Shown here in pieces: positions 4,848 to 21,788 of a DNA stretch of 40,525 nucleotides. The stretch lies in the UHGV virus genome UHGV-0146833. One strand, 5' to 3'. A program made the position numbers and the translations under genes. The notes under the pieces are model-generated. The model was given only the letters and a program-made list of their open reading frames with translations, had not been told where the DNA came from and ran no database searches. Source of the stretch: a virus. Positions within the stretch are counted from its first letter, which is position 1; the number at the start of each line of letters is the position of its first letter.

Positions 4848-5039
4848 TTACTCCCCGTTCACCGAAAAATCACGATAGAAACGTTTCCACATACGATAAG
4901 TCTGCGCGAGTTGTTCACCACGAAACATCGCCTTCCTGGCCTTCATGTTTTCCTTGTGAGACTTTCGATCTATGAACCAAAACCATTGCTGGAACACACA
5001 AAGCAAGAGACACAAAGATAATATCCACTGATTACCCAT
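4848..5039 (-). CDS. Hypothetical small membrane protein (63 aa), start overlapping the repA stop
   Basis: Internal ATG of track ORF 4848..5156; N-terminal hydrophobic helix (WILSLCLLLCVFQQWFWF); 4 nt before next gene's start. Confidence 0.4.
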   Translation of the reverse strand: MGNQWILSLCLLLCVFQQWFWFIDRKSHKENMKARKAMFRGEQLAQTYRMWKRFYRDFSVNGE

Positions 5040-8000: not shown

Positions 8001-9027
8001 CGGTATTCCCTTTTCCTTCTGTGGCTGATTTCCGGTCATTATCCAGTGCGCAGGTGATTTTTGCCGCTGGGTACATGTTTACCAGTTGTTCCACAACATG
8101 AACCATGTTGTTAGCGGATACAGCGACAACCACAGCGTCAAAGCGTTTATCTTTTTTCGTGGCAAGCCAGATGGATGCACCAGTAGCAAAACCTTCTGTA
8201 ACAGCGATGTTTTGCGCCCCTTTCAGCTCACCGATAACAAAGCAGGCACCGACGAAATCGCCGCTGGTTACTGCGGTGGTCTGGTATTTCCCACCTTGTT
8301 TGTCGATTCGCTGCCAACCCACAATACGACCATCGTAACGACCGTCCAGATGAGCCAGAGGGATAGCCATATATGTGGTTGGCCCCCGGCTCCATTTCGC
8401 ACTGTCGTGACTGGTCACGCGACGCACATCACACGAATTAAAAACGTCACGAATACCTTTTTTAATCGCATATGGCCATGAGCCGTCTTCTGCAGGAGCA
8501 TGTTCCCACGCGCTGTGGAATGCCAGCCATCCCAGCAAACGTTCATGGTCCATTTGGTTGTTTTTCAGGTCATTAATTCGTTTTTGTTCTTCACGGCGAC
8601 GACGTGCTTCGGCCTGACGTTCTATTCTTGCCCGTTCTTCTTCCGGTTGTGCGACCACGGTCGCATTATTCCGTTGTTGCTCACGGCGATATTCAGAAAA
8701 CAGGAAGGAGAAACCGCTCCATGAGCCAGCATCGCTGCCTTTATGGACGAAGTTAATGAACGGGTAATCAATCCCTTTGCTGTGTTCCAGCCTGGAGTAA
8801 ATTTCTACGCGTCCTTTCAGGCTCTTTTCGAGAGCTTCTGGAGATGTTTTATTGTATGAAGAGTAACGCTCAACCCCCCCACGAGGGTTGAGTTGGATGT
8901 TGTCGGAACAGGCAGGCCAGTTGATACCAGCCATTTGTGCCAGCTCGGTTAGTTCATCCCGTGCTGCTTCAATTAGCGAGAACGGATCGCTGCCAAAGCG
9001 ATCCGCATAGAAATCGTTTAATGTCAT
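5032..9027 (-). CDS. repA: Replication protein RepA (primase-helicase multidomain, N15 RepA-like)
   Basis: 1331 aa (N15 RepA is about 1324 aa by recollection); Walker A-like GMGSGKST in the C-terminal half; position between the telN side and cB as in N15. Confidence 0.85.
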   Translation of the reverse strand: MTLNDFYADRFGSDPFSLIEAARDELTELAQMAGINWPACSDNIQLNPRGGVERYSSYNKTSPEALEKSLKGRVEIYSRLEHSKGIDYPFINFVHKGSDAGSWSGFSFLFSEYRREQQRNNATVVAQPEEERARIERQAEARRRREEQKRINDLKNNQMDHERLLGWLAFHSAWEHAPAEDGSWPYAIKKGIRDVFNSCDVRRVTSHDSAKWSRGPTTYMAIPLAHLDGRYDGRIVGWQRIDKQGGKYQTTAVTSGDFVGACFVIGELKGAQNIAVTEGFATGASIWLATKKDKRFDAVVVAVSANNMVHVVEQLVNMYPAAKITCALDNDRKSATEGKGNTGLRTGYEILSKFNDVRCVYPTFEDDPQMECSDFNDLHKLRGLRETARQLFATANRLKTGTDLLSLTLNRLKTIKRDNRRTFAKELLRAVDIGMLTCPVPNSPSDLFNMFCIVLREMGLENIYRATVKDHIARRLNKKCRIAQAPRSFSERITDPNKRPQHITYKRFETSVMTDDVLKYVQSLQGIVIVRAGMGSGKSTGLLRPLMHSSERGISVAHRVSLIGGLWEMMTEGKGVKADILHYQDPGYQEMAPYASKLTICINSIVKNCWQPLMRQHDYFGFDEATQGLRAVLSGRAMENPVAVFNTLIDALARTEQHPIMVDADANDLLVDLAELAMKRREELGLPAWLQIHVIELPVDVRNRETGEPIRVFYTEKDRIMTEVVKAVSDGEKIMLATDSSTFAEDVTATLRMHFPGKKFLCVNQKSKQDEEVDAFTSQPKVMVMKYDGLIYSPSISSGVSFEKKHFDRHFGMFCGEVVPSDAVQMLRRDRTAKEFIIGFDKARAKRETDPQKIERAFAQALLATAGMNGELTDVIFDGDRISMGVANTDFTRMKIKAAAIEASARNDYASNMICIMHSDGYKVSPLATDYAANDFGKELRKEARDIVWEQTLDLHLNTETPEESEREELLKKRALTLEEQAKLVRWDIENELKLPVEEGTLKFYFDGARDKIRRYETMLLDEVTARRYDREEAAINFTYAYRQTGQWQYFVVTAMTREQADDVFKAKFPGIIDYKVKATPAVEVGMRGFYALKSATLRQYFIDCGIDPETMTGEATQERLKFARDNLMTAERRDLLNNVLRIGGFMTPKGKPKVPEALFKNICDSLGLKTGKRRGRDGDKRPTLRFVEPESVAFMLDILAQRQEDGMTLKARKAEKSTTEVDRDLSLNIYMNGETRSTNTEEQDPPRSAISQALAVLPVAVPESWAMSALSGEELATMSSWSSASIAMTFASLYLTEFMDHLSSNELRRLREYITGNSSCSYEEQGAFYG
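8406..8419. repeat. Palindrome CGTGAC-TG-GTCACG inside repA (copy 2 of 3)
   Basis: Read directly. Confidence 0.7.
8650..8665. repeat. Palindrome TGCGACC-AC-GGTCGCA inside repA (centromere-like family, copy 1 of 6)
   Basis: Read directly; resembles the F-plasmid sopC inverted repeat (TGGGACCACGGTCCCA as I recall). Confidence 0.7.
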
Positions 9028-9078
9028 TTTTTAGCCATTCCATGCGAATTATGTTTTTTCGGGTTGAAAAAATCCGCA

Positions 9079-9140
9079 GGAGCAGCCACAATAAACGCAT
9101 CTTGAATTGACGGAATCCGTCGCGTTGTTGTGGCTGCTTC
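9079..9140. promoter_or_regulatory. Long-range inverted repeat (GGAGCAGCCACAA ... TTGTGGCTGCTTCC) upstream of repA; candidate repA promoter/operator or regulatory RNA structure
   Basis: 13-bp arms separated by ~35 bp containing a nested AACGC...GCGTT repeat; lies 50-110 bp upstream of the repA start. Confidence 0.3.
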
Positions 9141-9150
9141 CTGAAAAGGA

Positions 9151-9178
9151 CCCGAGTTTGCCGACTCGGGTTTTTTTT
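9151..9178 (+). terminator. Rho-independent terminator-like hairpin (CCCGAGT-TTGCC-GACTCGGG) plus T8, between cB and repA
   Basis: 8-bp GC-rich stem followed by TTTTTTTT on the plus strand, antisense to cB/repA; the minus-strand reading has a weaker U-tract. Confidence 0.5.
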
Positions 9179-9272
9179 CGTCTTTTTTCTGCTGCTGTAA
9201 CCTGAGTCAACCCACAGAACATATGCCCTGCATTAAACCAGATTTACAGCAAACAATAAACCCCGTATTAAG

Positions 9273-9869
9273 TCATCTACCCTCAACCATGAATGATTTG
9301 ATCGTTCCGACTATTTGGTGAACAAATTCAAGATCGCTTTTCCTGAAGATGGCGCGTTGTGAATTTGTTCCGTCCAAATAGTAATTTTCATCATCAAAAC
9401 GGGCCAGGCGCTGGATGGTGATATTTCCTGCAGTATCACGAACCAGAACATCCTCGCCGGGAACCAGTTCCAGCGCAGAATCGACCAGGAGAAAATCGCC
9501 TGGCTGATAGTTTCCCTGCGTCAGATTGCTGATAGTTAACGCATAAACAGTATTGCGCTGGCTGATGAATGGCAGGAATCGCTCAGTATTTGGAACCTGT
9601 CCTGGCTTCCACTCTTCATCAGGTCCACTTTCAGTTGTGCCAATAACAGGAATGCGATCAGGGTCATATTCTGTCCCATACAGCACCCAATGCACTGGCT
9701 TTCGTAAGCACTTAGCCAGGGCAATACCTATCTCCAGTGACGGCATTACGTCGCCACGTTCTAAGTTTTGGACGCCTGCAATAGAGATATCGACAGCCTC
9801 AGCAACTTCTCGCAACGTCAGCTTCATCTCTAAACGGCGTGCTTTCAGTCGTTCGCCTCGTGTTTTCAT
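9273..9869 (-). CDS. cB: Prophage repressor CB (CI-like: N-terminal HTH, C-terminal S24 peptidase-like domain)
   Basis: 198 aa; HTH segment LTLREVAEAVDISIAGVQNLERG; C-terminal LexA/CI-like fold; divergent from cro with operators between. Confidence 0.85.
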   Translation of the reverse strand: MKTRGERLKARRLEMKLTLREVAEAVDISIAGVQNLERGDVMPSLEIGIALAKCLRKPVHWVLYGTEYDPDRIPVIGTTESGPDEEWKPGQVPNTERFLPFISQRNTVYALTISNLTQGNYQPGDFLLVDSALELVPGEDVLVRDTAGNITIQRLARFDDENYYLDGTNSQRAIFRKSDLEFVHQIVGTIKSFMVEGR

Positions 9870-9891
9870 AGCTTAATCATAAATGATCTTC

Positions 9892-9933
9892 TTATAGCTG
9901 GCTATAAAATTTATTTATTATAGCTAGCTTTAA
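9892..9933. promoter_or_regulatory. Repressor operators in the cB-cro intergenic region: TTATAGC-TG-GCTATAA (9892-9907) and TTATAGC-TA-GCTTTAA (9918-9933); TATAAT at 9949-9954
   Basis: Two 16-bp palindromic sites read directly between divergent cB and cro. Confidence 0.7.
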
Positions 9934-9960
9934 ATGTGATTTATTGCTTATAATAACCGC

Positions 9961-10182
9961 ATGAAACCAGAAGAACTTATTCGCCACTTTGGCAGTGTAG
10001 AAAAAGCAGCGGCTGGGGTAGGTGTAACACCCGGTGCTGTTTACCAATGGTTAACCGCTGGAGAGATTCCTTCATTGCGGCAAAGTGATATTGAAGTTCG
10101 TACTGCTTACAAGCTGAAGAGTGACTTTACAACTCGGCGGGTAAAGCAGTCGATTAAGGAGAGCCGTAAGCGTGGAGCTTGA
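9961..10182 (+). CDS. cro: Cro-like HTH regulator
   Basis: 73 aa, HTH GVGVTPGAVYQWLTAGEIP; divergent from repressor. Confidence 0.8.
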   Translation: MKPEELIRHFGSVEKAAAGVGVTPGAVYQWLTAGEIPSLRQSDIEVRTAYKLKSDFTTRRVKQSIKESRKRGA

Positions 10183-10882
10183 GTATATACGCAGCTGCGT
10201 CTCTACGGCATTGGCTGATGTTCATTATCGCCAGCGTGGCATTCTGGAGGTCCAGCTTGAGCAGATGCGTCTCGGTAGATCAGGACGGTTTAACAATAAA
10301 CCAGTCCGGTTAATCAGTGTGGGGGATGATAACTCATACGAAGTGTCCGTTCCTGCTGAGCCGGTTAGATTCCACCAGGGGAAAACATTTAAACAATCAT
10401 CAATGTTGCTCACTGATATTGATTTTCAGAGCGCCAGCTGGCGCAGGGCTATTGGTCAGTTGAATAACGAGGAATCAGCCTGGCTTTATTATTGCTACGG
10501 ATGCAAGCCTGATTACAACAATGATGTGATTGTTTGTCAGTGGTTATGGCTTGATTTTCTGGTTGCTCATTCGGGGGGCGGCTTTAAAAAAATGAAGGCC
10601 TCCACGAAAAAAGCCATGCGGAAATTGATTTATTACGCGGCACAGCAGGTTAAATCAGAACTTACGTGTGCTGAGGCAGTTGATGAGAGAGAACAGGACA
10701 GGCATCTGAGTTTTCTACTGAATATATCTATTGATAGCTGGAGACAAGATTATAAAGAACGCTGGCTTTTAATTAAGTCGCGATGTCTGAGCTTAAATCG
10801 AACTGCATTATTAAATGCGGCGGAGAAGCGCAGTGAAATCATCAAACGCCATCGGGCAGGAAGTGCCATTCTGCCTTTGTAA
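10172..10882 (+). CDS. Hypothetical 236-aa protein; candidate late-gene antiterminator (Q-like) by position after cro
   Basis: GTG start with AAGGAG RBS, overlaps cro end; Cys cluster YYCYGC...C. Function inferred from N15 gene order only. Confidence 0.55.
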   Translation: MELEYIRSCVSTALADVHYRQRGILEVQLEQMRLGRSGRFNNKPVRLISVGDDNSYEVSVPAEPVRFHQGKTFKQSSMLLTDIDFQSASWRRAIGQLNNEESAWLYYCYGCKPDYNNDVIVCQWLWLDFLVAHSGGGFKKMKASTKKAMRKLIYYAAQQVKSELTCAEAVDEREQDRHLSFLLNISIDSWRQDYKERWLLIKSRCLSLNRTALLNAAEKRSEIIKRHRAGSAILPL

Positions 10883-10889
10883 ACAAGTT

Positions 10890-11135
10890 ATGTTCAGGAA
10901 ACCGTCGAAGCCAGAATTAAGATATTCGGGGGTAAGAAATGAATATGTTATCTGGTGTCCAACTTGTGGTTACAGGACACGACCAGATAGTAATAAGCAG
11001 TCTGTAATTGCCGATTGGTATTTATCAAATCAGCCAGGTAATAAGCATATAGAAAATCTTTGGATTAAGCGTTACTTGGAAATCAGCGAGGGTGCGACCG
11101 TGGTCGCACAAGAAAATGAAAATAACGCCATTTAA
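10890..11135 (+). CDS. Hypothetical small protein with CPTCG motif (81 aa)
   Basis: Internal ATG of track ORF 10815..11135, chosen because it follows the stop of the upstream gene. Confidence 0.45.
   Translation: MFRKPSKPELRYSGVRNEYVIWCPTCGYRTRPDSNKQSVIADWYLSNQPGNKHIENLWIKRYLEISEGATVVAQENENNAI
11093..11108. repeat. Palindrome TGCGACC-GT-GGTCGCA (centromere-like family, copy 2 of 6)
   Basis: Read directly; sits ~8 bp upstream of the next ATG. Confidence 0.7.
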
Positions 11136-11319
11136 GCAGGGGCCGATGACGCATGATGAAGCAGAGCGTCTTTCAGATACTTATCGGCGGCGTGGTAAGA
11201 AAGTTCTGGTTGTTCGTTCTGATTTTTTAGGTGATGGATATTGCGTTTATGTTCATTTACCTGAATCAGAAAGAGCGCCAAAACCATCCAGAACATATCA
11301 ACAGAAAATTTGGGTATAG
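11116..11319 (+). CDS. Hypothetical protein (67 aa)
   Basis: ATG downstream of palindrome; ORF in track (extended form 11092..11319). Confidence 0.45.
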   Translation: MKITPFKQGPMTHDEAERLSDTYRRRGKKVLVVRSDFLGDGYCVYVHLPESERAPKPSRTYQQKIWV

Positions 11320-11342
11320 ATAAACGTTGAGGAGAATTATTC

Positions 11343-11942
11343 GTGACTAATCAGATTATTTACGACAGGAAACGGTCTGATGTAATGATCGACCTTGAAA
11401 CAATGGGTACTAACACATGTGCTCCAATTGTTTCTATCGGGGCAGTGTTTTTTTCTCCAGAAAGTGAGGAATTAGGTCCTACTTTTTATGTGCCAGTGAA
11501 TCTCAGAAGCTCGATGTTGAATGGTGGTGTCGCCGATGGTGATACCATTTTATGGTGGTTGAAACAGAGCAAGGAAGCCAGTGCCGCAATTTGTACTAAT
11601 GATGCCCTTGATATTAAGGATGCACTTTTTGAATTATCACACTTTATTACTTGCCATGCATGTAATTTAAAAAAATTGAAAGTATGGGGAAATGGAGCAA
11701 CATTCGACAATGTAATTTTACGCGGTGCTTATGAGCGCGTTGGCTTAGCCTGTCCGTGGGAATATTTTAATGATCAGGATGTTCGAACAATCGTTAATCT
11801 TGGTCAGTTTATTGGTTTCAATCCTAAAAAAGATATGCCATTTGATGGCGAACGACACAATGCCCTGGCTGATGCTATTCATCAGGCTAAGTATGTATCC
11901 GCAATTTTCTCCCGTCTCATAAAAGGGAAAGGAGAATCGTAA
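11343..11942 (+). CDS. 3'-5' exonuclease, DEDDh (DnaQ-like) family
   Basis: Exo I motif MIDLETMG near N-terminus and Exo III-like HNALADA near C-terminus; GAGGAG RBS. Confidence 0.7.
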   Translation: MTNQIIYDRKRSDVMIDLETMGTNTCAPIVSIGAVFFSPESEELGPTFYVPVNLRSSMLNGGVADGDTILWWLKQSKEASAAICTNDALDIKDALFELSHFITCHACNLKKLKVWGNGATFDNVILRGAYERVGLACPWEYFNDQDVRTIVNLGQFIGFNPKKDMPFDGERHNALADAIHQAKYVSAIFSRLIKGKGES

Positions 11943-12361
11943 TGGCAAAAGTTTTTACACCAGAACAGCGTGAAGAACTGAAGAAACAAATTGTGGAACT
12001 CGTGCGCCTGAATGGGCGAGGAACGGTTAGGCAACTGGCAGATGAAATTAGTATTAGCCGATGTGCTGTTAATCGTTTATCCAGAGAGCTTGCCACCAGT
12101 GGTGATTTGTATATCTCTGGCTCCGGGATATTTCTGTCTGCACAAGCACGCAAGGACTGGCAAAAAGCCCGTAAAAAACTATCAAGAGTAAAGCCGAAGA
12201 CATCGGTAGTGGTTGATCCAGACCTTATCTGGTCATTACCTGACGGAGAAATACGTCGTTACGACAGGCGCTTGAACATGATTTGTCACGATTGCCGGAA
12301 AAGTGAAGTTATGCAGCGTGTGCTGGCTTTTTATCAGGGAAATTTTCAGGAGGTGGCGTAG
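11942..12361 (+). CDS. Hypothetical protein with winged-helix-like segment (139 aa)
   Basis: ATG overlaps upstream stop; segment TVRQLADEISISRCAVNRLSREL resembles an HTH. Confidence 0.55.
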   Translation: MAKVFTPEQREELKKQIVELVRLNGRGTVRQLADEISISRCAVNRLSRELATSGDLYISGSGIFLSAQARKDWQKARKKLSRVKPKTSVVVDPDLIWSLPDGEIRRYDRRLNMICHDCRKSEVMQRVLAFYQGNFQEVA

Positions 12362-12651
12362 TGAATATCGACACCACGATAACGATCGATACGGCCCTAA
12401 ATATCGGTCTGGCACTTCTCGGTTGGTTTTACATCATGTTCAGTGCGGGGAAGTGGGCGGCCTCTGTTTTTCTAAAGCAGTGGGGAAAGCACCGCAAACA
12501 GGAAAGACGCCAGAAAGTGTTAGAGGCGTTATATGACGCATTTGAACTTAGCCGCATTGAGCCAGGCACAACAGCCAAGATAGCGACAAAAGGTGACATG
12601 ATGATAGTGATGTTCCGACAGGAGAGAGCAGAGAAAGGGGAATCAGCATGA
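12361..12651 (+). CDS. Hypothetical small membrane protein (96 aa)
   Basis: GTG start overlapping upstream stop; N-terminal hydrophobic helix LNIGLALLGWFYIMF. Confidence 0.5.
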   Translation: MNIDTTITIDTALNIGLALLGWFYIMFSAGKWAASVFLKQWGKHRKQERRQKVLEALYDAFELSRIEPGTTAKIATKGDMMIVMFRQERAEKGESA

Positions 12652-13322
12652 AATTTTCCAAATTTTCTGAGTTGGTGAATCGTATTTTGTCCAACAACCA
12701 CAGCCATCGTCGCGATATGGATGTAACAATCGTTATTCATTCGCCTGGCAGCATTGGTTCAACACCTTCAGTTGAGGTTCAGTCAATTCACGCTGGTTTT
12801 GATTGGGATTCCGGGAAAGTGCTTATTTTCCCAGCACAGCCACTGACCACGCTAACACCAGAACAGATTACTGATATTACTGATAGTGTGCGCAAAGGTC
12901 AGTCTTGGCACGCATATCAGGAATACAAGAAGCATCAAGAGCAGTTGGAAAAATTGTCGATTGAACTGGATGCTGCAAAACAGCGCGTAGCAGAACTGGA
13001 GGCCAGTCGCGTGACGCTGGCGGAGGAGAACTCGTGGCTGAAGATGCTCATAGAAGATCATGCTGGTTGTACTGCTGTCTGCCCAAATTGCTCTCATGAA
13101 GAACCCAGTGAAACAGACGACATTGTTTGGTCTTACCGTTCACGGGAAACGCCAGCCACCGATGCTTTCCTGGCTGAAGTCCGGGCGCAGGGATTGGAGA
13201 TGTTTGCACAGAAATGTAACTCAAAATCCGAACAGTCGCTTGCATCTGATATACGCGATAACTGGAAACTACTCGGTGAGCATGCGACTGACTTTGCCGC
13301 AGAGCTTCGCAAAGGAGAGTGA
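12648..13322 (+). CDS. Hypothetical protein with coiled coil and CPNC zinc-ribbon-like motif (224 aa)
   Basis: ATGA overlap with upstream gene; coiled-coil segment QEQLEKLSIELDAAKQRVAELEASR; CxxC. Confidence 0.6.
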   Translation: MKFSKFSELVNRILSNNHSHRRDMDVTIVIHSPGSIGSTPSVEVQSIHAGFDWDSGKVLIFPAQPLTTLTPEQITDITDSVRKGQSWHAYQEYKKHQEQLEKLSIELDAAKQRVAELEASRVTLAEENSWLKMLIEDHAGCTAVCPNCSHEEPSETDDIVWSYRSRETPATDAFLAEVRAQGLEMFAQKCNSKSEQSLASDIRDNWKLLGEHATDFAAELRKGE

Positions 13323-13323
13323 T

Positions 13324-13818
13324 ATGACCACTATTACCAGAGAACAGGCTAAGAAAATTATTGAAGCAGCCGACGATGTTATTAGTGCGCTGGCCGGAAC
13401 TAACGAGGATGTTCACCCAGGTAGCGATAACATGCTACGTCTGTGGGATGACCTGAATGACCGTTACGCGCCGCCGGAAATTGTGCGGGAACTGGCACGA
13501 ATTGCACTGGCATCGCTGGAAGCAGAACCGGTGGCATGGCTGCATTCAGACAATGGCTTAGGTATTCCGGCAATAACCCGGAGTAAAAACATTGCTGACA
13601 GTTGGTTATCAAAGGGCTGGTATGTTCAGTCGCTATATGTAGCCCAGCCACTGCCGGTGGTGCCGGATGATAATCGTATTCAGTTTTCTGTTTCACTTCC
13701 TGCAGCGTTTGGTGGAGATAAATATTTTATTGATGGTGTATTTCAACCTTTGAGATATGAGCGTGACTGTGAAAAAGCGGTTGTGGCCGCTGGCGGTGTA
13801 GTTAATTGGGTTAAGTAA
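13324..13818 (+). CDS. Hypothetical protein (164 aa)
   Basis: ATG 1 nt after upstream stop; internal M of track ORF 13060..13818. Confidence 0.55.
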   Translation: MTTITREQAKKIIEAADDVISALAGTNEDVHPGSDNMLRLWDDLNDRYAPPEIVRELARIALASLEAEPVAWLHSDNGLGIPAITRSKNIADSWLSKGWYVQSLYVAQPLPVVPDDNRIQFSVSLPAAFGGDKYFIDGVFQPLRYERDCEKAVVAAGGVVNWVK

Positions 13819-13833
13819 TTTTCAGGAGGATTT

Positions 13834-14160
13834 ATGGCTCTGACACCGGCAGAACGGCAAAGGAGACGCAGGGAACGGTTGAAGAAGGAAGGCACATCAA
13901 GACGGGACTGGATTTTGGAGCCTGACGAGTTACGTATGTTGGGGGAAATTTGTGTATTGCGTAGACCAGGGCGAGTTCCATATTCGGAGAACGAAGTCAT
14001 CGGCCTTCTGATCAGGAAAAACTATAAGGAGTTGCAGAAGCAGCTATCTACTACTTGTCCGCGATGTGGTCAAAAAATGTCTGTTTCAGAATGCATTTTT
14101 GATGGCGAAGGCTCATGCCACCTTACAACCACGAGGCTGAAACTTGCGCTCAAAGCGTGA
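13834..14160 (+). CDS. Hypothetical Arg-rich protein with CPRCG motif (108 aa)
   Basis: AGGAGG RBS; basic N-terminus RQRRRRERLKK. Confidence 0.55.
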   Translation: MALTPAERQRRRRERLKKEGTSRRDWILEPDELRMLGEICVLRRPGRVPYSENEVIGLLIRKNYKELQKQLSTTCPRCGQKMSVSECIFDGEGSCHLTTTRLKLALKA

Positions 14161-14169
14161 CTGGTCACG
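14156..14169. repeat. Palindrome CGTGAC-TG-GTCACG (copy 3 of 3), overlapping the stop codon of the upstream gene
   Basis: Read directly. Confidence 0.7.
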
Positions 14170-14178
14170 GAGGGATAA

Positions 14179-14421
14179 ATGGATAAAAAGGCATTGCTTT
14201 TTGAAATGATACGAAAACGGAGCGAAAAGAGCTTTTCTGATGGTGGTGATGGGTTTGTTTTCGCTTCTATGCTTGCTTTTGATGTTGGGTTAAATAGCAG
14301 AATTGTTAAAAGGATGCTTGATTCTGCTGTCCGTACTGGACTTCTTGAGAAAGTTGATCGTGGCATAGGGAGAGAGCATAAGTATCGGGCCACACAGCAG
14401 TTTTTGCAGTTAATACATTGA
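14179..14421 (+). CDS. Hypothetical protein (80 aa), possible winged-helix fold
   Basis: ORF in track; GGAGGG RBS. Confidence 0.5.
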   Translation: MDKKALLFEMIRKRSEKSFSDGGDGFVFASMLAFDVGLNSRIVKRMLDSAVRTGLLEKVDRGIGREHKYRATQQFLQLIH

Positions 14422-14503
14422 AAATTGACCGTAAAGTTTGAGTTTTCCCCTGTAATTTTATACAGTATAAATAACCTTTTTTAGTTAAATGGTATGAGAT
14501 TTA

Positions 14504-14707
14504 ATGTCTGAAGCAGCCGTATCAACTCTTGAACAACTCGATTCAAATTTAAGAGATATTGACGCCGTTCTGGATCTGGTTAGCGTCACCCTGGCTTCTC
14601 CAGAAGCCAGCCTACATATTGGTGAGGTTTCACGGCTCATCAACATGTCGCGAGAGATTGCCCAGCATTGTCAGAAAACTATCGCTGTTGAGCGTTCACA
14701 TCATTGA
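14504..14707 (+). CDS. Hypothetical protein (67 aa)
   Basis: ORF in track; preceded by an AT-rich promoter-like gap. Confidence 0.4.
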   Translation: MSEAAVSTLEQLDSNLRDIDAVLDLVSVTLASPEASLHIGEVSRLINMSREIAQHCQKTIAVERSHH

Positions 14708-14749
14708 TGAACACCCCGCCCTTCAGGACGGGGTAGTAAAAGAGTCTAA

Positions 14750-15037
14750 TTAATAAACAGCGCGAATATTGATGGTTGCGCCGCAGGCATGAGCATATTT
14801 AGCCAAAGTTTTCATACTTGCCCCTAAAGGATTGCTTTCCAGGCGGCTGATGGCTGACGGGCGCAACCCCATTCGTTCAGCCAGAGCTGATTTCGTTAAA
14901 CCTGCTCTTTCCCTCATTTCGTATAACATTTCGACCATCTCCAGCTCTTTGTCGGCCTCTTCATATCCTTTGACGGCTTCTGGAGTGTTAAGAAGTTTTT
15001 CTTTTACTTCGTTAAACGGGATGCCTTTCGCTTTCAT
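14750..15037 (-). CDS. HTH (XRE-family) antitoxin, HigA-like
   Basis: 95 aa; HTH LTKSALAERMGLRPSAISRLE; start overlaps toxin stop (ATGA); toxin-first order typical of HigBA. Confidence 0.75.
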   Translation of the reverse strand: MKAKGIPFNEVKEKLLNTPEAVKGYEEADKELEMVEMLYEMRERAGLTKSALAERMGLRPSAISRLESNPLGASMKTLAKYAHACGATINIRAVY

Positions 15038-15348
15038 CAGTTCATCTCCTTCAGGCGAGTTCTGGCGATTTCGATAGCCTTCACCGGTGTTTTCTGTGTC
15101 TTTTTTACAAATGCATGCAATAGATAAATTTCGTTACCAGTCGCGTAGGCGTACAGCGTTCTTGCGATGTTTTTATCCCCTACTCGTAGTTCAAAAAGCC
15201 CTCCACCTATTACACGGCTATGGGGCATCTTCAGTTTGTTGCCTTCTTTCTCCAGTCGCTCAATTAATCTAGTCATGCGACCTCGCAAATCATCTGGTAG
15301 TTCAAGCAGTTCATTCAGTGCTGCAGGGTGGGTTATCACGTTAAACAT
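15037..15348 (-). CDS. RelE/ParE-superfamily toxin, HigB-like
   Basis: 103 aa from internal ATG with GGAGG RBS; fold-family assignment from overall pattern and the adjacent XRE antitoxin. Confidence 0.7.
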   Translation of the reverse strand: MFNVITHPAALNELLELPDDLRGRMTRLIERLEKEGNKLKMPHSRVIGGGLFELRVGDKNIARTLYAYATGNEIYLLHAFVKKTQKTPVKAIEIARTRLKEMN

Positions 15349-15407
15349 ATTATAGCCTCCATATCCATAAAATACACCAAAACAGGAAAACATAGCAAAT
15401 TAAAAAT

Positions 15408-15423
15408 TTCACCAAAAAGTGAA
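15408..15423. promoter_or_regulatory. Inverted repeat TTCAC-CAAAAA-GTGAA in the divergent promoter region between the toxin-antitoxin pair and gene 15496; candidate antitoxin operator
   Basis: Read directly; located ~60 bp upstream of the toxin start. Confidence 0.3.
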
Positions 15424-15495
15424 AAATAACACTGGATGTGTTCGTTTGGCAGAGTTACAGTTCGTGTCATTGAGGGGCAATAACCCACTAACCAT

Positions 15496-15735
15496 ATGAA
15501 TTTGGAGGATATTATGAATTATCAAGGTAACGAAAAAATGCGCGACGACGTTGCGGAGATAGCTAACGAACTGTATGAGTTGTGGCAGAAGGTTGAACGT
15601 TTCGAAAAGGAATATGGTTTCAACAGTACCAACCTAGCAGACCGACTGGCTGGTCGCTTAGTTGGGACTATGGGGCCAAAACTGGCTGAGTTGAACCGCT
15701 TTATGGCTGATGTTGATTTCCAGTTTCAAGATTGA
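15496..15735 (+). CDS. Hypothetical protein (79 aa)
   Basis: GGAGGA RBS; ORF in track. Confidence 0.5.
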   Translation: MNLEDIMNYQGNEKMRDDVAEIANELYELWQKVERFEKEYGFNSTNLADRLAGRLVGTMGPKLAELNRFMADVDFQFQD

Positions 15736-15748
15736 TTAGAGAGGCGTT

Positions 15749-15976
15749 ATGAATATTAATGAAATTCGTGGAAATATGACTGAAGCGGCCCTGAGTGTGG
15801 AATGTGTTATGCGTGGATACCCACGCATTTCCCTGAAAGAGTTAAGCGAAGCCTGTTTTTTGAGTCAAGCTGCCGTTGAATTTATCATCGAACAGATGAT
15901 CTGTTTTGGGGTTGCAAAGCGTAGCGGGTCTGGTCGATATTCTTTGACCGATGAATATAAGCAGGCAACTTTCTAA
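15749..15976 (+). CDS. Hypothetical protein (75 aa)
   Basis: GAGAGG RBS; ORF in track. Confidence 0.5.
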   Translation: MNINEIRGNMTEAALSVECVMRGYPRISLKELSEACFLSQAAVEFIIEQMICFGVAKRSGSGRYSLTDEYKQATF

Positions 15977-15982
15977 AAACTG

Positions 15983-15998
15983 TGCGACCACGGTCGCA
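15983..15998. repeat. Palindrome TGCGACC-AC-GGTCGCA (centromere-like family, copy 3 of 6; extended 22-bp symmetry CTGTGCGACC..GGTCGCACAG)
   Basis: Read directly, immediately after the stop of gene 15749..15976. Confidence 0.7.
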
Positions 15999-16018
15999 CA
16001 GCACAAAAACGAAAAAGC

Positions 16019-16047
16019 TTGGCAAAATGACGGTTTTTAGTTATTGT
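16019..16047 (+). promoter_or_regulatory. Sigma70-like promoter candidate TTGGCA-17-TATTGT, possible late promoter ahead of the methyltransferase-lysis-structural genes
   Basis: Hexamers and 17-bp spacing read directly; followed by hairpins and a terminator within ~80 bp, a layout reminiscent of lambdoid pR'/qut/tR'. Confidence 0.3.
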
Positions 16048-16085
16048 TTTGCTAAGTTGGGTTTTTTGTACCCAACAGCCAACAA

Positions 16086-16108
16086 GCCGCCTTTATGGCG
16101 GTTTTTTT
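16086..16108 (+). terminator. Rho-independent terminator (GCCGCC-TTTAT-GGCGG plus T7)
   Basis: GC stem and TTTTTTT run read directly; a further 10-bp-stem hairpin lies at 16126-16151. Confidence 0.55.
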
Positions 16109-16243
16109 GTGCCTGAAAAGTGGGCGCAGGACAAGTTGCAGCTTGTCCTGCGGTCAACCCATGCCAGAGCTATAGGCTGAACCCAAAGCCCACCCGCGAT
16201 GCGCATCGCCGGGTTAGCTTACCCAGGCAAAAAAATAATAGCT

Positions 16244-17320
16244 ATGTTCAAAACCACTAATATTCATGGCGCACAACTCGTTTGCGCAGATTCTCTGCAA
16301 TTTATCAAAACCATCCCTGATAACTCGGTCAATTTGATTGCAACAGACCCACCATACTTCGGCGTAAAGGCTAACGCATGGGATAACCAGTGGGATAGCG
16401 ATGCTGACTTTTTGGGGTGGATTGACGAATTTTTGGCAGAATTTTGGCGGATATTGGCCCCTAATGGCAGCCTGTATATGTTTACCGGCTCTCGCCTTGC
16501 GTCAAAAATTGAATTATTAACTCGCGATCGTTTCAATGTTCTGAACCATATCATTTGGGCTAAACCCAGTGGTATGTGGCGCGGTTGTCATAAAGAAAGT
16601 TTAAGGGCTTATTTTCCTGCTACTGAAAGAATATTATTTGCAGAGCATTACGGCGCGTCAGGTTATGCTAAAGGTCAGTCAGGTTATGCTTCAAAATGTG
16701 CAGATTTAAGAAAAAATATTTTTTCTCCACTAATTGATGCTTTTTCGCTGGCTCGCCGTCAGTTAGATATATCAGCCGCAGACATTAATTCAGCGACAGG
16801 AAAGCAGATGTGTTCGCACTGGTTTTCTTATTCGCAGTGGCGGCTTCCATCATTAATTGATTTTAATAAACTATGCGAATTATTTCGCAGGAAGGCAGAT
16901 TCACTCGGTGTCCCGTGTCCATATCCTTTTAATGTTGATTATTCAGAACATGAAAAGTGTTATAGCGATCTGAAATTGCATTATGAGGAAGTAAAGAAGC
17001 AGTATGATGATTTGAAGGCTCAGTATGAAAATTTGCGTCGCCCATTTCATGTTACTGCAGATGTGCCTTATACCGATGTATGGGAGTTTCCTCCTGTGCA
17101 ATATTATCCTGGCAAGCACCCATGTGAAAAACCTGCAGCGATGATGGAACATATTATAAAGAGTAGTTCACGCCCCGGGGATATCGTTGCCGATTTCTTT
17201 ATGGGATCAGGCTCAACTATTAAAGCTGCGCTGAAGTTAGGACGTCAGGCAATAGGTATTGAGATTGAGAGCGAACGTTATCTTCAGACAGTTGATGAAG
17301 TGAAAAAGTTATTTGAGTAA
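16244..17320 (+). CDS. DNA N6-adenine/N4-cytosine methyltransferase (beta-class, DPPY catalytic motif)
   Basis: ATDPPYF near the N-terminus and FFMGSGST (AdoMet-binding FxGxG) near the C-terminus, a motif order typical of beta-class amino-methyltransferases; no restriction endonuclease partner adjacent. Confidence 0.8.
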   Translation: MFKTTNIHGAQLVCADSLQFIKTIPDNSVNLIATDPPYFGVKANAWDNQWDSDADFLGWIDEFLAEFWRILAPNGSLYMFTGSRLASKIELLTRDRFNVLNHIIWAKPSGMWRGCHKESLRAYFPATERILFAEHYGASGYAKGQSGYASKCADLRKNIFSPLIDAFSLARRQLDISAADINSATGKQMCSHWFSYSQWRLPSLIDFNKLCELFRRKADSLGVPCPYPFNVDYSEHEKCYSDLKLHYEEVKKQYDDLKAQYENLRRPFHVTADVPYTDVWEFPPVQYYPGKHPCEKPAAMMEHIIKSSSRPGDIVADFFMGSGSTIKAALKLGRQAIGIEIESERYLQTVDEVKKLFE

Positions 17321-17415
17321 CTGGAGAATATATTCCCCTGCCGTTTTTGGTAGGGGTTATTTTCATCATATAGTTTCCAAGCCGAAACCTCAGCAACTAT
17401 TGCGAGGTAAGAGAT

Positions 17416-17688
17416 ATGAAGATGGATGAACGATACAGCAGTGCATCTTATGGTAGCGCTGGTCTTGCTGCGTTCTTTGCCAGCCTGTCATTGCAGGATT
17501 GGGGCTTCATTATCGGTGTCGCGTTCAGCATTATCCTCGGTGTGCTTACATACCGGCTCAATAAACGCGAGCAGATGAAGCGCACGAAGATATTGCAGGA
17601 CTTATTGGATAAAACTAATACCAATAATCTTTCTGCTACAGCGATGGTTATTGGAGAGCTGGGGAAGAGAGCACCGAAGGAAATATGA
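17416..17688 (+). CDS. Holin (class II / pinholin-like, 90 aa)
   Basis: Two adjacent hydrophobic segments; immediately upstream of and overlapping the endolysin. Confidence 0.65.
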
Positions 17689-18185
17689 TGCAGTCATCAT
17701 TACGCAAAGCTGTCACAGCTGCTATTGGTGGCGGGGCTATTGCCATAGCGTCTATGCTCATCACTGGCCCAAGTGGTAACGATGGTCTGGAAGGTGTAAG
17801 ACATAATCCTTACAAAGACATAGTTGGTGTATGGACTGTATGTTACGGGCATACAGGAAAAGACATCATTCCCGGTAAAACGTATACCGAAGCAGAATGC
17901 AAAGCCCTCCTGAATAAAGACCTTGCCACGGTCGCCAGACAAATTAACCCGTACATCAAAGTCGATATACCGGAAACAACGCGCGGCGCTCTTTACTCGT
18001 TCGTTTACAACGTGGGCGCTGGTAATTTCAGAACATCGACGCTTCTTCGCAAAATAAACCAGGGCGATATCAAAGGCGCATGTGATCAGCTACGTCGCTG
18101 GATATCTGCTGGCGGTAAGCAATGGAAAGGCCTGATGACTCGTCGTGAGATTGAGCGTGAAGTCTGTTTGTGGGGTCAACAATGA
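17685..18185 (+). CDS. R: SAR-type endolysin (phage lysozyme, phage 21 R-like)
   Basis: N-terminal Gly/Ala-rich signal-anchor [20 protein letters not shown] followed by the lysozyme catalytic region; close to remembered phage 21 R sequence. Confidence 0.85.
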
Positions 18186-18619
18186 GCAGGGTAACCGCGA
18201 TTATCTCCGCTCTGGTTATTTGCATCATCGTCTGCCTGTCGTGGGCTGTTAATCATTACCGTGATAACGCCATCGCCTACAAAGAGCAGCGCGATAAAGC
18301 CACATCCACAATCGCTGATATGCAGAAGCGTCAACGTGACGTAGCAGAACTCGATGCCAGATATACAAAGGAGCTTGCTGATGCTAACGCGACTATCGAA
18401 AGCCTCCGTGCTGATGTTTCTGCTGGGCGTAAGCGCCTGCAAGTCGCCGCCACCTGTGCAAAGTCAACGACCGGAGCCAGCGGCATGGGCAATGGAGAAA
18501 GCCCAAGACTTACAGCAGATGCTGAACTCAATTATTACCGTCTCCGAAGTGGGATCGACAGGATAACTGCGCAGGTTAACTACTTGCAGGAATACATCAA
18601 GACGCAATGCCTGAATTAA
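18182..18619 (+). CDS. Rz: Inner-membrane spanin Rz
   Basis: ATG overlapping the endolysin stop; N-terminal TM helix then coiled coil; position after endolysin. Confidence 0.8.
18381..18566 (+). CDS. Rz1: Outer-membrane lipoprotein spanin Rz1, embedded in Rz in the +1 frame
   Basis: Signal peptide ending in lipobox-like LLGVSAC followed by a Pro-rich segment [12 protein letters not shown]; fully nested in Rz. Confidence 0.7.
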
Positions 18620-18660
18620 TCCCTCTGTATCAAAAACGAGCTCAATTTGTTGGATAGTGA

Positions 18661-18972
18661 ATGAAAATTTATATTGCCGGGCCAATGACGGGATATGAGA
18701 ACTTTAATCGTGACGCCTTTAATAAAGAGGCAGATCGTTTGTCACGACATGGTCACTCTGTCTTGAATCCAGCCACTTTGCCTAATGGTCTGACACAACG
18801 TGAATACATGGATATTTGCTTTGCAATGCTTCGTTGTGCTGATGCTATTTTGATGCTTCCTGGCTGGAAAGCGTCTGCTGGAGCAACTGCTGAGTATCAT
18901 TACGCATACAAGATGGAGATGCCGGTATTCACTACGCTGAATTACCCGCCAGCTTGTTCCTCTGTAGCATAA
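18661..18972 (+). CDS. DUF4406-like protein (nucleoside 2-deoxyribosyltransferase-like fold), 103 aa
   Basis: N-terminal MKIYIAGPMTGY...N-RD-F pattern as I recall for this family; family assignment from memory. Confidence 0.5.
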   Translation: MKIYIAGPMTGYENFNRDAFNKEADRLSRHGHSVLNPATLPNGLTQREYMDICFAMLRCADAILMLPGWKASAGATAEYHYAYKMEMPVFTTLNYPPACSSVA

Positions 18973-18992
18973 AAATCTCTTTGTTTCTCGTT

Positions 18993-19008
18993 TGCGACCG
19001 TGGTCGCA
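18993..19008. repeat. Palindrome TGCGACC-GT-GGTCGCA (centromere-like family, copy 4 of 6)
   Basis: Read directly, 20 bp after the stop of gene 18661..18972. Confidence 0.7.
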
Positions 19009-19020
19009 CATTAAATACCG

Positions 19021-19288
19021 CGCTGTATCGTCGCTGTATTCCCGCATTAACCATGACCGTAGCCCGACGGGGAACTCATCTGCGCGAGTGTGCGGAAATA
19101 ATCAAAAACGATGCACACCGGGTTTTTACCGCGCTAATGATTCGCGGGTTTGCCCCTAACGCTCGCCAGTCCTGTGCGAGGGTGGAAGAAACAGGGCATG
19201 TATTCAGGAGCGTGCGACCGTGGTCGCACGGTATCTTTGTCAGGAGGTTTTGATGAAAGAGTTGCAAAAAATTAATTCAATAATGGAA
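19021..19288 (+). repeat. Direct repeat copy 1 (~268 bp, ~96% identical to 20804-21071); contains palindrome copy 5 (19213-19228), an RBS and the first 12 codons of gene 19253
   Basis: Base-by-base alignment of the two copies at a constant offset of 1783 bp. Confidence 0.85.
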
Positions 19289-20113
19289 AGGTTAAGTGCT
19301 CTTGAGCGTAAGCAGGACGATTGTGGAAAGCTGTGTGTTGAAAAGCAAAATGAGCTTTACCGGGGATTTTTTACAATCGTAAGTGAGCTGATGCCAATTG
19401 TTAATAACTGCCTAATGACATCCAGATTTTTTAATGTCGGTGCTACTACATCCAGAAAATTTACTGTGAAAATTCAAGAAAGAGTTTCTGGTAGTGTGAC
19501 AAGAGAGATGGCTGAACAGTTTGTGGCAATGAGTAATAAAACAAAAAGAAAAAAGGCATTGCTTGTAACAGTAAATCAGCTTTCAGGGCGCGTTGACTTT
19601 CAGGTCAGACAGGGTGGGCGTGTACTGGTAAACGATGCGTTCGTTGGACGTTGCTTTAGTCCTTACTCGATGAAATATGATGTTGATGCAGATGATCAGG
19701 ATATCAGCATTTCCTGGAAATCTGAGACAGCAGGGATTGTATTAACAGCAGAGTTGTTGAGTGATGATAAAAATGATGGCCAGCATCATTTGGACGAAAA
19801 AAATCATATTTCTGAAATTTGTATGAAGCCACGTAGTGGAATGACTTTATTGTCGCGAACTCTTGCTGCTGGCTTTTCTGCAACGGAGAAACGTGTGCTT
19901 CTGGTAGTGCCTGAAGATGCAGATATTCGTCCACTGAATGGCTGTGATGTTATTAGTGCAAAAACATTGCATACCCGCATCATGCCTGTACCGGATGTGG
20001 TCATCATTGATGATGTTGAGAAATGCAAGTCTGTTTCCTCAACTGCCACAATCAAACGAATTTTACGTTGTAGCTCGTCGGCTGTTGTATTCCGGAAGCA
20101 GTTACATAACTAA
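19253..20113 (+). CDS. Hypothetical soluble protein (286 aa), no recognised domain; AT-rich cassette gene
   Basis: ATG with AGGAGG RBS (internal M of track ORF 19220..20113); AT-rich relative to flanking phage genes. Confidence 0.7.
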   Translation: MKELQKINSIMERLSALERKQDDCGKLCVEKQNELYRGFFTIVSELMPIVNNCLMTSRFFNVGATTSRKFTVKIQERVSGSVTREMAEQFVAMSNKTKRKKALLVTVNQLSGRVDFQVRQGGRVLVNDAFVGRCFSPYSMKYDVDADDQDISISWKSETAGIVLTAELLSDDKNDGQHHLDEKNHISEICMKPRSGMTLLSRTLAAGFSATEKRVLLVVPEDADIRPLNGCDVISAKTLHTRIMPVPDVVIIDDVEKCKSVSSTATIKRILRCSSSAVVFRKQLHN

Positions 20114-20236
20114 CCAGTTTTGTTTTGCAGAACATCCTCAACTAAAAGCTTATAGAAAGAGAGCCTGAGATATTTTTTCTGTCTCTCGTAGTTGTTTATT
20201 TTTCTCGAACAGGCTTACAACTTACAGGATATAAAC

Positions 20237-20686
20237 ATGCAAGAAGAAGCAAATAAAATTCTTGTTGATTTATTGAAGAAGGCCAGCGATGGAATTGATT
20301 CCGCCATTGCATTCAGTCAGGCTCAGATTCCGGATGTTGTTCATCAGTTGCTGGTATGGAATATGGTTGATAGCCTGATTAAAACATTAATAGCCATTTC
20401 AACAATCCCGCTGGTTTTCTGGTTTATGAAAAAACAGTACCAAAAAGTTGAAATTGGTATATTCGATAATGAAGGACGCTCATGTGATAATGGACAGCCT
20501 AAATACAAACCGACTATGATTTGGGAAAGTGACGGTAGGTTAAGTGGTTTTGTCTTGCCATTAGTAGCACTTTTTATTCTATGGTTCAGTTTTATTATTG
20601 CTGTAGTAACCAATATGACATGGTTAAAAATCTGGTTGGCACCTAAGTTATATCTAATCGAATACGCAGCATCACTAATTAAATAG
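20237..20686 (+). CDS. Hypothetical membrane protein with two predicted TM helices (149 aa)
   Basis: Hydrophobic segments LIKTLIAISTIPLVFWFM and FVLPLVALFILWFSFIIAVV; internal ATG of track ORF 20192 (which begins with TTG). Confidence 0.6.
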   Translation: MQEEANKILVDLLKKASDGIDSAIAFSQAQIPDVVHQLLVWNMVDSLIKTLIAISTIPLVFWFMKKQYQKVEIGIFDNEGRSCDNGQPKYKPTMIWESDGRLSGFVLPLVALFILWFSFIIAVVTNMTWLKIWLAPKLYLIEYAASLIK

Positions 20687-20803
20687 TCCATTACAAAAGC
20701 CATTCGCTACTGAGTGGCTTTGATAATGGCTTATACCCTGCACGGGATAACTTAACTGATATCCCTTTTAACGGATAAAGGTATTCAAGCCTGACACATC
20801 ATG

Positions 20804-21071
20804 CGCTGCATCGTCGCCGTATTTCCGCATTAACCATGACCGTAGCCCGACGGGGAACTCCTCTGCGCGAGTGTGCGGAAATAATCAAAAACGATGCACA
20901 CCGGGTTTTTACCGCGCTAATGATTCGCGGGTTTGTCCCTCATGCTCGCCAGTCCTGTGCGAGGGTGGAAGAAACAGGGCATGTATTCAGGAGCGTGCGA
21001 CCGTGGTCACACGGTATCTTTGTCAGGAGGTTGTGATGAAAGAGTCGCAGAAATTTAATTCAATAATGGAA
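20804..21071 (+). repeat. Direct repeat copy 2; contains degenerate palindrome TGCGACC-GT-GGTCACA (20996-21011, copy 6)
   Basis: Aligned to copy 1; ~10 substitutions. Confidence 0.85.
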
Positions 21072-21146
21072 CGATTCTGTTCTCCTGAGCGAGAGGCTTA
21101 CAACATGCATTCATTGAGCGCCTGTTGTAATATCGCCAAACATTAA
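21036..21146 (+). pseudogene. 36-aa ORF whose first 13 codons (MKESQKFNSIMER) are homologous to the N-terminus of gene 19253; probable remnant or short alternative gene headed by repeat copy 2
   Basis: Shared RBS and N-terminal codons within the direct repeat, diverging immediately after the repeat boundary. Confidence 0.3.
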
Positions 21147-21278
21147 TCAGGTGCGCGAGATGTCGGCTAATACTGACCCTGACGAAATGTGACGCTGCTT
21201 TAATCTGAAAGATGGTGCAGACGGCCTATAGTTCGCATCCATTCCTGATTACCCGATTCAAGTTGATGAGACAGAAAC

Positions 21279-21524
21279 ATGACAGCTGCTAAAGAGCAGA
21301 TTGAATATGAGCTAAATGAATTCTTCGCGTCCGCCCTTGGTGATGTGTTTAAAAGTTGCCGACTGGCTGAAAGCGTATCGGATTACCAGATCTCTACTGT
21401 TAGTTTTCCAACGGAAAAAAACGCCTGGTTGGAGCTTGGTGAATTACCCGTGATTATCGAGTTGTCTAACGGACGTCGCTTTGAGATTAGTGCGTCTGAA
21501 TGGTTGCAGATCACACCGCTTTAA
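21279..21524 (+). CDS. Hypothetical protein (81 aa) upstream of cos
   Basis: ORF in track; function unknown. Confidence 0.45.
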   Translation: MTAAKEQIEYELNEFFASALGDVFKSCRLAESVSDYQISTVSFPTEKNAWLELGELPVIIELSNGRRFEISASEWLQITPL

Positions 21525-21596
21525 ATTAAGCCCGCTGCTCACCTTGGCTACAGGCATTCGCTAGTGGCTGGGTCCTTTCCGGCGATCCGACAGACT

Positions 21597-21788
21597 ACGG
21601 GGCGGAAGGCGCGCGGGTTTTCGCTATTTATGAAAATTTTCCGGTTTAAGGCGTTTCCGTTCTTCTTCTCCGTAACTTCATGTTTTTATTTAAAACACCC
21701 CCTGAAAAGAAAGGAAACGACAGATGCTGAAAACGGGCTTTTTGGCCTTTGTCGTTTCCTTTCTCTGTTTTTGTCCGTGGAATGAACA
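21597..21788. other. cos site: cosN around 21600-21611 and lambda-like cosB (terminase binding region) up to the Nu1 start
   Basis: Segment CGCGGGTTTTCGCTATTTATGAAAATTTTCCGGTTTAAGGCGTTTCCG... matches the remembered left end of lambda; the 12 nt corresponding to the cohesive end read GGGCGGAAGGCG here versus GGGCGGCGACCT recalled for lambda. Confidence 0.75.

Follow-up and report, generated by a model that had tools for sequence, protein, structure and literature searches.

Dispersed centromere-like sites have been described in N15, RK2 and pSM19035 (PMC3235114), and the N15 type is the one closest to the element treated here, a set of six short palindromes scattered over a stretch of 40,525 nucleotides from the virus genome UHGV-0146833 (the window, in what follows). 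Each of the four natural inverted repeats (IRs) of N15, given with their flanks in Table 4 of PMC7205306, has the form GTGCGACC-NN-GGTCGCAC, and normal foci of N15 SopB form on an array of these IR1-IR4 sites (PMC7205306). The sopC centromere of the F plasmid, in turn, consists of tandem 43-bp repeats adjoining sopB (12 repeats according to PMC3597684, 10 according to PMC7205306). Both centromeres differ by one nucleotide per half-site, and the determinants of SopB specificity have been located within residues 177-198 of the F protein and 179-200 of the N15 protein (PMC2910045). Furthermore, F SopB is nonfunctional with N15 sites, an N15/F hybrid SopB with the F DNA-binding domain gives no normal foci on the N15 IR array, and the specificity of N15 SopB is reported to be relaxed (PMC7205306).

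Judged by sequence and position, the palindromes of the window would be, with a probability of roughly 0.9, dispersed centromere (parS-like) sites of an N15-type SopABC partition system. The N15 SopAB system, with its centromere sites IR1-IR4, is said to have been treated by Ravin and Lane in 1999 and by Grigoriev and Lobocka in 2001. If this reading holds, a dimer of SopB (a ParB-family protein), encoded together with sopA at the far end of the plasmid, would bind each 16-bp inverted repeat via its helix-turn-helix, each palindrome bound in this way would nucleate a partition complex, and the SopA ATPase would move these complexes so that the low-copy linear plasmid reaches both daughter cells. 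A preliminary description of the window, made from its letters alone, had already proposed SopB-type centromere sites on account of their resemblance to F sopC, and this interpretation has gained support from the identity with N15 IR1-IR4, the four orthologous positions, the annotation of phage phiKO2 and the sopAB genes of the relatives. In terms of biology this adds little beyond N15, whose SopB binding site is known already, and the variation is a minor one: where N15 has four sites, the window has five that are intact and a sixth that has decayed.

The palindromes and their N15 counterparts

The 16-bp inverted repeat of N15-type SopB sites, TGCGACC-NN-GGTCGCA, occurs in the window in five perfect copies and in one with a single mismatch. 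A pattern search for TGCGACCRYGGTCGCA returned exactly five perfect matches (8650-8665, 11093-11108, 15983-15998, 18993-19008 and 19213-19228), and a mismatch-tolerant search added 20996-21011 (TGCGACCGTGGTCACA); in 100 dinucleotide-preserving shuffles there were 0 matches to the palindrome (0 expected by chance). The five perfect palindromes and the degenerate copy initially listed all stand. A further match at 9653, with three mismatches, is at chance level and was not counted. All copies fall within 8.6-21 kb of the window, the pattern search found none in the structural-gene half (22-40.5 kb), and an Rfam scan of positions 1-23000 gave nothing at the palindromes. The sites, all of them unstranded, are the following (D1 is a direct repeat near cos, treated below):

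8650..8665: IR1 orthologue, in the 5' part of repA; perfect; in full register with N15 IR1 (33480-33495) within a stretch of repA that is 90% identical, and with a phiKO2 partitioning-site annotation at the same position
11093..11108: IR2 orthologue, 211 bp downstream of the Q gene; perfect; aligned with N15 IR2 (35931-35946), with the left flank GAGGG in common
15983..15998: IR3 orthologue, followed after 20 nt by the -35 hexamer of the late promoter; perfect; aligned with N15 IR3 (41125-41140)
18993..19008: IR4 orthologue, 20 bp past the DUF4406 stop codon; perfect; the fourth phiKO2 partitioning site follows the homologous nucleoside-deoxyribosyltransferase-like gp58, and N15 IR4 lies in the same cos-proximal interval
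19213..19228: fifth, extra site, at the right end of D1 and 24 nt upstream of the ATG at 19253 (phrog_2571 gene); perfect
20996..21011: sixth, degenerate site (TGCGACCGTGGTCACA) in the second D1 copy; one mismatch

The unit that is actually conserved has 18 bp, GTGCGACC-NN-GGTCGCAC, in five of the six copies, and among genomes that are ~75% identical its palindrome arms are invariant and the two central nucleotides free. In the N15 genome, copies are found at 33480 (in repA, with one mismatch), 35931 (after Q), 41125 (upstream of the annotated -35 and -10 of the late promoter) and 45562 (between genes 58 and 59), and the motif of the window is identical to IR2-IR4 of that genome and to IR1-IR4 of PMC7205306 Table 4; IR1, unlike in the N15 reference sequence, is a perfect palindrome in the window. 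With F sopC the palindromes have in common the 7-2-7 inverted repeat and a homologous SopB that binds through a helix-turn-helix plus a conserved arginine. The F core itself, TGGGACCACGGTCCCA, is absent, given that all copies depart from it at positions 3 and 14 and only there (TGGGACC in F, TGCGACC here); these are the two symmetric differences that had been noted at the outset, now recovered by comparison with the sopC sequence of PMC3597684. Since N15's own site is identical to the motif, the closest reference for it at the sequence level is the N15 IR consensus and not F sopC.

The dispersal of the sites follows N15 as well: they are spread over the repA-to-cos arm, far from sopAB, and occupy its four orthologous positions. 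The preliminary description had named several scattered centromere sites far from sopAB in N15, and the same motif does stand at four positions there. The flank alignments are convincing for IR1-IR3 and weak for IR4, so the orthology of the 18993 site rests mainly on gene context. In the GenBank record of phiKO2 there are four annotations of a 'putative plasmid partitioning site' (in repA, after Q, before the late promoter and directly after the DUF4406-like gp58); motif and gene contexts are therefore those of the window, including a fourth site right after a DUF4406/nucleoside-deoxyribosyltransferase-like gene, and the difference is that phiKO2 has no fifth or sixth site near cos.

As to the immediate surroundings, the 8650 copy does lie inside repA (5032-9027, minus strand), as first described. 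The remaining five had been called intergenic, which is right for 15983, 18993, 19213 and 20996; 11093 is intergenic in the N15 and PhiR46_1 annotations, but small overlapping ORFs (open reading frames; 'orf QD1') appear there in some records. Likewise, a start codon 8-25 bp downstream had been claimed for three copies, and this could be confirmed for 19213 (ATG 19253) and 20996 (ATG 21037, of a truncated duplicate ORF), with no convincing third case identified.

Across Escherichia, Enterobacter and Klebsiella telomere phage-plasmids the motif is invariant, and it is the number and placement of the sites that change: there are four in each of N15, phiKO2 and Enterobacter phage MStein-2023a, five to six in the window and in the Escherichia relatives PhiR46_1, YDC107_1, pAH01-1, E. 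albertii pEA26_5 and an E. fergusonii plasmid, and capsid-proximal ones in contigs matching Klebsiella telomere phages. Eight of eight relatives examined have 4-6 sites, all within the repA-to-cos arm. The two extra copies of the window, 19213 and 20996, have no counterpart in N15, phiKO2 or MStein-2023a, and sit, in contrast to anything in N15, at the right ends of a duplicated lambdoid non-coding element beside cos. They are lineage-specific additions near cos: of six Escherichia relatives, five have the fifth site and the remaining one has it merged with IR4, and the sixth site is missing from PhiR46_1. The change in the latter is a G-to-A at palindrome position 14, the symmetric partner of the N15/F-discriminating position 3, and the 20996 copy is probably weakened as a SopB site because it is mutated at a specificity-determining position.

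Could the palindromes act mainly at the RNA level instead, as hairpins that terminate or pause transcription or that stabilise late-operon transcripts? In the N15 record, IR4 coincides with an annotated stem-loop, a putative rho-independent terminator, and a consensus scan of the window flags 19211-19230 as terminator-like, with stretches overlapping 19217-19232 and 21000-21015 also scoring. Nevertheless, the hallmarks of intrinsic terminators (a GC-rich hairpin plus a U-run at the end of a transcription unit) were not found, since even a weak T-rich tail occurs only in the D1-associated copies, which score weakly. Moreover, IR1 lies within repA and IR3 upstream of a promoter, where a terminator would be senseless, and an invariant stem with two free central nucleotides fits a sequence-specific protein site and not a structure kept by covariation. 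With SopB foci having been seen on an array of the N15 sites (PMC7205306), a role mainly as RNA hairpins is very improbable.

Partition proteins and the late-transcription control region

The sopAB genes had been expected to lie outside the window, and so they do: they are absent from it, and in five of the five complete relatives with usable annotation (PhiR46_1, pAH01-1, pEA26_5, the E. fergusonii plasmid and phiKO2) sopA and sopB are found at the far telomere. In Escherichia phage PhiR46_1, to which positions 8000-22000 are related (97.6% identity across 86% of the 14-kb stretch compared), the ParB/ParA (SopB/SopA) genes are at 43.7-45.8 kb, beside telR and just beyond the end of the window, which ends in gene J, ~5 kb short of them. 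The SopB proteins of the relatives share 72-76% identity with N15 SopB and ~43% with the crystallised fragment of F SopB, and it is in these relatives that the N15-type recognition helix is found: it reads D-R-N-I-x-x-R-C in N15, PhiR46_1, pAH01-1, pEA26_5 and phiKO2, and S-R-K-I-I-T-R-C in F. The D-R-N versus S-R-K difference matches the published mapping of specificity to the residues flanking Arg190 (PMC2910045). The arginine that matches R219 of F SopB (GELSAR) is conserved too in the relatives' SopB. As to a sopC-like centromere, neither the window nor the sopAB-proximal 5.3 kb of PhiR46_1 has a tandem array, in particular none of the F type with 43-bp repeats adjacent to sopB.

The motif identity, the positional orthology and the conservation of the cognate protein in the relatives are direct observations. 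Because the sites are identical to N15 sites with published binding data and the cognate protein is conserved, SopB would be expected to bind them in this element too, and to serve in its partition.

The window itself begins ~22 nt inside the telL end as annotated in PhiR46_1 and runs from telL through cos into lambda-like head and tail genes to end in gene J; it therefore represents the telomere-proximal first 40.5 kb of a linear, N15-like plasmid prophage whose full length would be roughly 46-47 kb. Its virion module is lambda-like, which is a difference from N15, and N15 has ~76% identity to it in the region from repA to the methylase gene. The features with which the first four sites are associated are these:

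5032..9027, minus strand: repA, primase/helicase-type replication protein, containing the IR1 orthologue (from the ORF list; relatives annotate a primase or CyRepA1 replication protein, and there are weak Toprim and ori-binding Pfam matches)
10172..10882, plus strand: Q antiterminator gene, partner of the arrangement of IR2, IR3 and late promoter (Pfam PF06323, E 2e-84)
16019..16047, plus strand: late promoter, homologue of N15 p52 (TTGGCA-17-TATTGT), from a promoter scan and aligned with the annotated -35 and -10 of N15 at 41162-41190
16084..16104, plus strand: intrinsic terminator that follows the late promoter, presumably in the region targeted by Q, from a terminator scan and conserved with the annotated stem-loop of N15 at 41229-41250
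18661-18972: DUF4406 gene (Pfam, E 4e-34)

The order of Q, a site, 5 kb, a second site, the late promoter and the terminator is conserved with N15. Around IR3 the upstream DNA is poorly conserved with respect to N15, whereas palindrome, promoter and terminator are all conserved, and the gap from the palindrome to the -35 is of 20-21 nt in the window, N15 and phiKO2. Chromosomal parS sites and the KorB operators of RK2 are likewise multiple, scattered 16-bp palindromes bound by a ParB-family protein, and some of them adjoin promoters and affect transcription, with ParB proteins doubling as transcription regulators. Unlike them, the sites described here have another recognition sequence and protein subfamily, and the effect proposed for them would be a help to Q-dependent late expression and not the repression of a regulon. 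In N15, mutation of IR2 or IR3 reportedly delays lysis, and IR3 is said to raise p52 expression given Q, IR2 and SopAB together, both results being attributed to Ravin, Rech and Lane in 2008 (J Bacteriol 190:3538). By analogy with N15, the sites at 11093 and 15983 would probably help Q-dependent late transcription during lytic growth, in addition to their part in partition; for these two, the transcriptional side-role that the preliminary description suggested is plausible.

This proximity to regulatory elements (20 nt upstream of the late -35 and, for the fifth site, 24 nt upstream of a start codon) might also speak for operators of a phage regulator other than SopB, such as the CB repressor, TelN or the gp51 encoded upstream of IR3, whose homologues are annotated in phiKO2 as winged helix-turn-helix (wHTH) proteins. 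Set against this, the CB operators of N15 (34056-34094 and 34729-34793) and its telRL differ from the palindromes in sequence and place, the one difference per half-site from the F SopB site tracks the SopB recognition helix, and exactly these sequences have been employed as the N15 SopB centromere in published work (PMC7205306); it is thus hardly credible that another regulator is what they serve. The particular readings as a TelN target, CB operator or terminator were rejected, in view of the annotated N15 CB operators and telRL lying elsewhere with other sequences and of the lacking terminator hallmarks.

Some points weigh against dispersed SopB centromeres. The sopAB genes of this very replicon are not within the 40.5-kb window; integrated lambdoid prophages hold two perfect sites although the 43-kb locus examined lacks sop genes, so that sites can be retained where no partition system of their own accompanies them; the 19213 copy and the IR4 of the N15 record also score as terminator-like hairpins; and the role in late transcription reportedly rests on one N15 study, that of Ravin, Rech and Lane (2008). 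For annotation, the six coordinates may be labelled putative SopB-binding centromere sites of an N15-type partition system, and the 15983 site, the 16019 promoter and the 16084 terminator together a late-transcription control region.

Cos-proximal copies and sites on other replicons

The last two palindromes had been assigned to direct repeats, and the 289-nt repeat D1 indeed carries 19213 and 20996:

19020..19308, plus strand: D1 repeat copy 1 (repeat finder); a non-coding lambdoid element forms its core (19020-19206), with IR4 and IR5 on either side in the window
20803..21091, plus strand: D1 repeat copy 2 (repeat finder), 94% identical to copy 1; it includes the degenerate site as well as a shortened duplicate of the 19253 ORF's 5' end

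The D1 core (19020-19206 and 20802-20989) is a common element, present in 3148 of 5426 complete E. coli genomes at 4827 chromosomal places, whose neighbours in a DLP12-like prophage are iss/bor and ylcI; it matches no Rfam family and contains no convincing ORF. In sop-less prophages the D1 homology begins 11 nt past the 18993 site and, ahead of 19213 and 20996, breaks off 6-7 nt short of the palindrome, therefore the element is there without palindromes, and this is the state of the sop-less DLP12-like prophage, which has the core and no flanking copies. Neither a control set of 1.08 Mb of lambdoid prophage loci (collected via a shared J-gene word) nor the lysis-to-terminase region of phage PhiR49_1 contains a palindrome site. 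For the interval 18500-22300, megablast against E. coli genomes and PLSDB plasmids gave a best coverage of 84-85% at ~97% identity.

A scan of IMG/VR with the 18-bp motif yielded at least 120 stretches, and the following counts refer to the 120 matches listed. N15-like marker genes accompany 63 of them; among the other 57, 55 are in three conserved contexts (two weak Q matches included) and 2 are isolated, so that 118 are in N15/phiKO2-like or in the three recurrent conserved contexts. In Klebsiella telomere phages, two of these contexts correspond to positions next to the major capsid gene; D1 together with a palindrome, close to cos, makes up the third. An exact 40-mer across the degenerate sixth site has no IMG/VR match, and a 47-mer from the end of the window matches only generic lambdoid J-gene loci in IMG/VR and nothing in genome_contigs. 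The capsid-proximal sites are found in the structural arm of contigs that match phiKO2-like Klebsiella telomere phages (3569-3586 of contig L142 and 6382-6399 of contig L136), and here the same motif is placed differently from N15, phiKO2 and the window, none of which has a site in that arm.

Sites have also been found on chromosomes. In E. coli VTB96815v (NZ_CP178648.1), an integrated lambdoid prophage beside dinF/zur has two perfect sites (20410-20425 and 20630-20645 of locus L130), with no sop genes within the 43-kb locus examined; its lysis-to-Nu1 module is shared with the window at ~92% identity, and the segment formed by site, D1 and site at 97%. The full segment is present on at least 11 E. 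coli chromosomes.

Are the cos-proximal copies, then, centromere sites in the first place? The three of them (18993, 19213 and 20996) might serve first of all as short recombination junctions where exchangeable gene modules meet, with little share in partition, which would be compatible with IR1-IR3 as working centromeres. Several breakpoints do coincide with them (18993-21013 of the window, 27517-27533 of locus L128 and 30695-30712 of locus L124): the E. fergusonii plasmid has lost precisely the 204 bp between the 18993 and 19213 sites, with one fused site left; the homology between the window and pAH01-1 ends at 21013, on the edge of the sixth site; among 229 site occurrences, the flanks are reassorted across contigs, the one on the D1 side meeting at least two unrelated flanks opposite it, one of which pairs with two different partners; and where sop-less lambdoid prophages are homologous, the similarity gives out 6-11 nt away from the palindromes. 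However, these breakpoints could merely reflect that the sites mark intergenic borders between modules, and recombination between the D1 copies, of 190-290 bp, could yield some of the rearrangements without any palindrome. In addition, IR4 is conserved in N15 and phiKO2, and the N15 IR4 is part of the published four-site array that supports SopB foci (PMC7205306). On balance, it is unlikely that these copies are junctions before anything else. Arms that do not vary around two freely changing central nucleotides, a conserved position within repA and the SopB results in the literature are not accounted for jointly by any of the alternatives.

The breakpoints and the chromosomal copies taken together suggest an exchange of modules at or near the sites, and orphan centromeres on chromosomes. 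A more specific proposal, in which the extra cos-proximal sites would be more than spare centromeres, namely that the 18-bp palindromes are themselves the crossover points at which late-region cassettes are swapped between N15-like phage-plasmids and integrated lambdoid prophages, leaving orphan chromosomal centromeres behind, is speculative and rather doubtful. Were it true, the SopB of an incoming phage-plasmid could bind the orphan sites and disturb partition (centromere-based incompatibility). In a broader sense, the turnover of sites and the orphan chromosomal copies could bear on the incompatibility and the mosaic evolution of phage-plasmids.

Other features of the window

The Pfam matches among the window proteins comprise a TelK/TelN protelomerase (181-2076), a large RepA, a CB-like repressor, Cro, the Q antiterminator, a DNA methylase (16199-17320) and DUF4406 (18661-18972). 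Between the fifth and sixth sites lies a two-gene cassette, with ORFs at 19253-20113 (286 aa, phrog_2571) and 20237-20686 (149 aa, phrog_3054), the second of which encodes a hydrophobic protein with a membrane-embedded look (judged by eye only). Its identification with the TelA-ImmA toxin-immunity cassette of Klebsiella telomere phages was rejected, since TelA-ImmA sits between repA and telN and the ORFs here fall into phrog_2571 and phrog_3054. Beyond the second D1 copy, towards the Nu1-proximal region, ~556 bp (21014-21569) are missing from all Escherichia relatives examined, and the small ORF inside them (21279-21524) has no PHROG match. On the minus strand, 3476-3676 has Rfam matches to C4 antisense RNA (82 bits) and isrK (64 bits), plus a sub-threshold match to the c4-a1b1 target, which together resemble a P1/N15-type anti-immunity locus (antirepressor control). 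Finally, the interval that separates the CB-like repressor gene from cro holds 2.3 tandem copies of a 26-bp unit (TGATTTATTATAGCTAGCTATAAAAT) at 9884-9945, and by analogy with the CB operators annotated in N15 these repeats are probably immunity operators.

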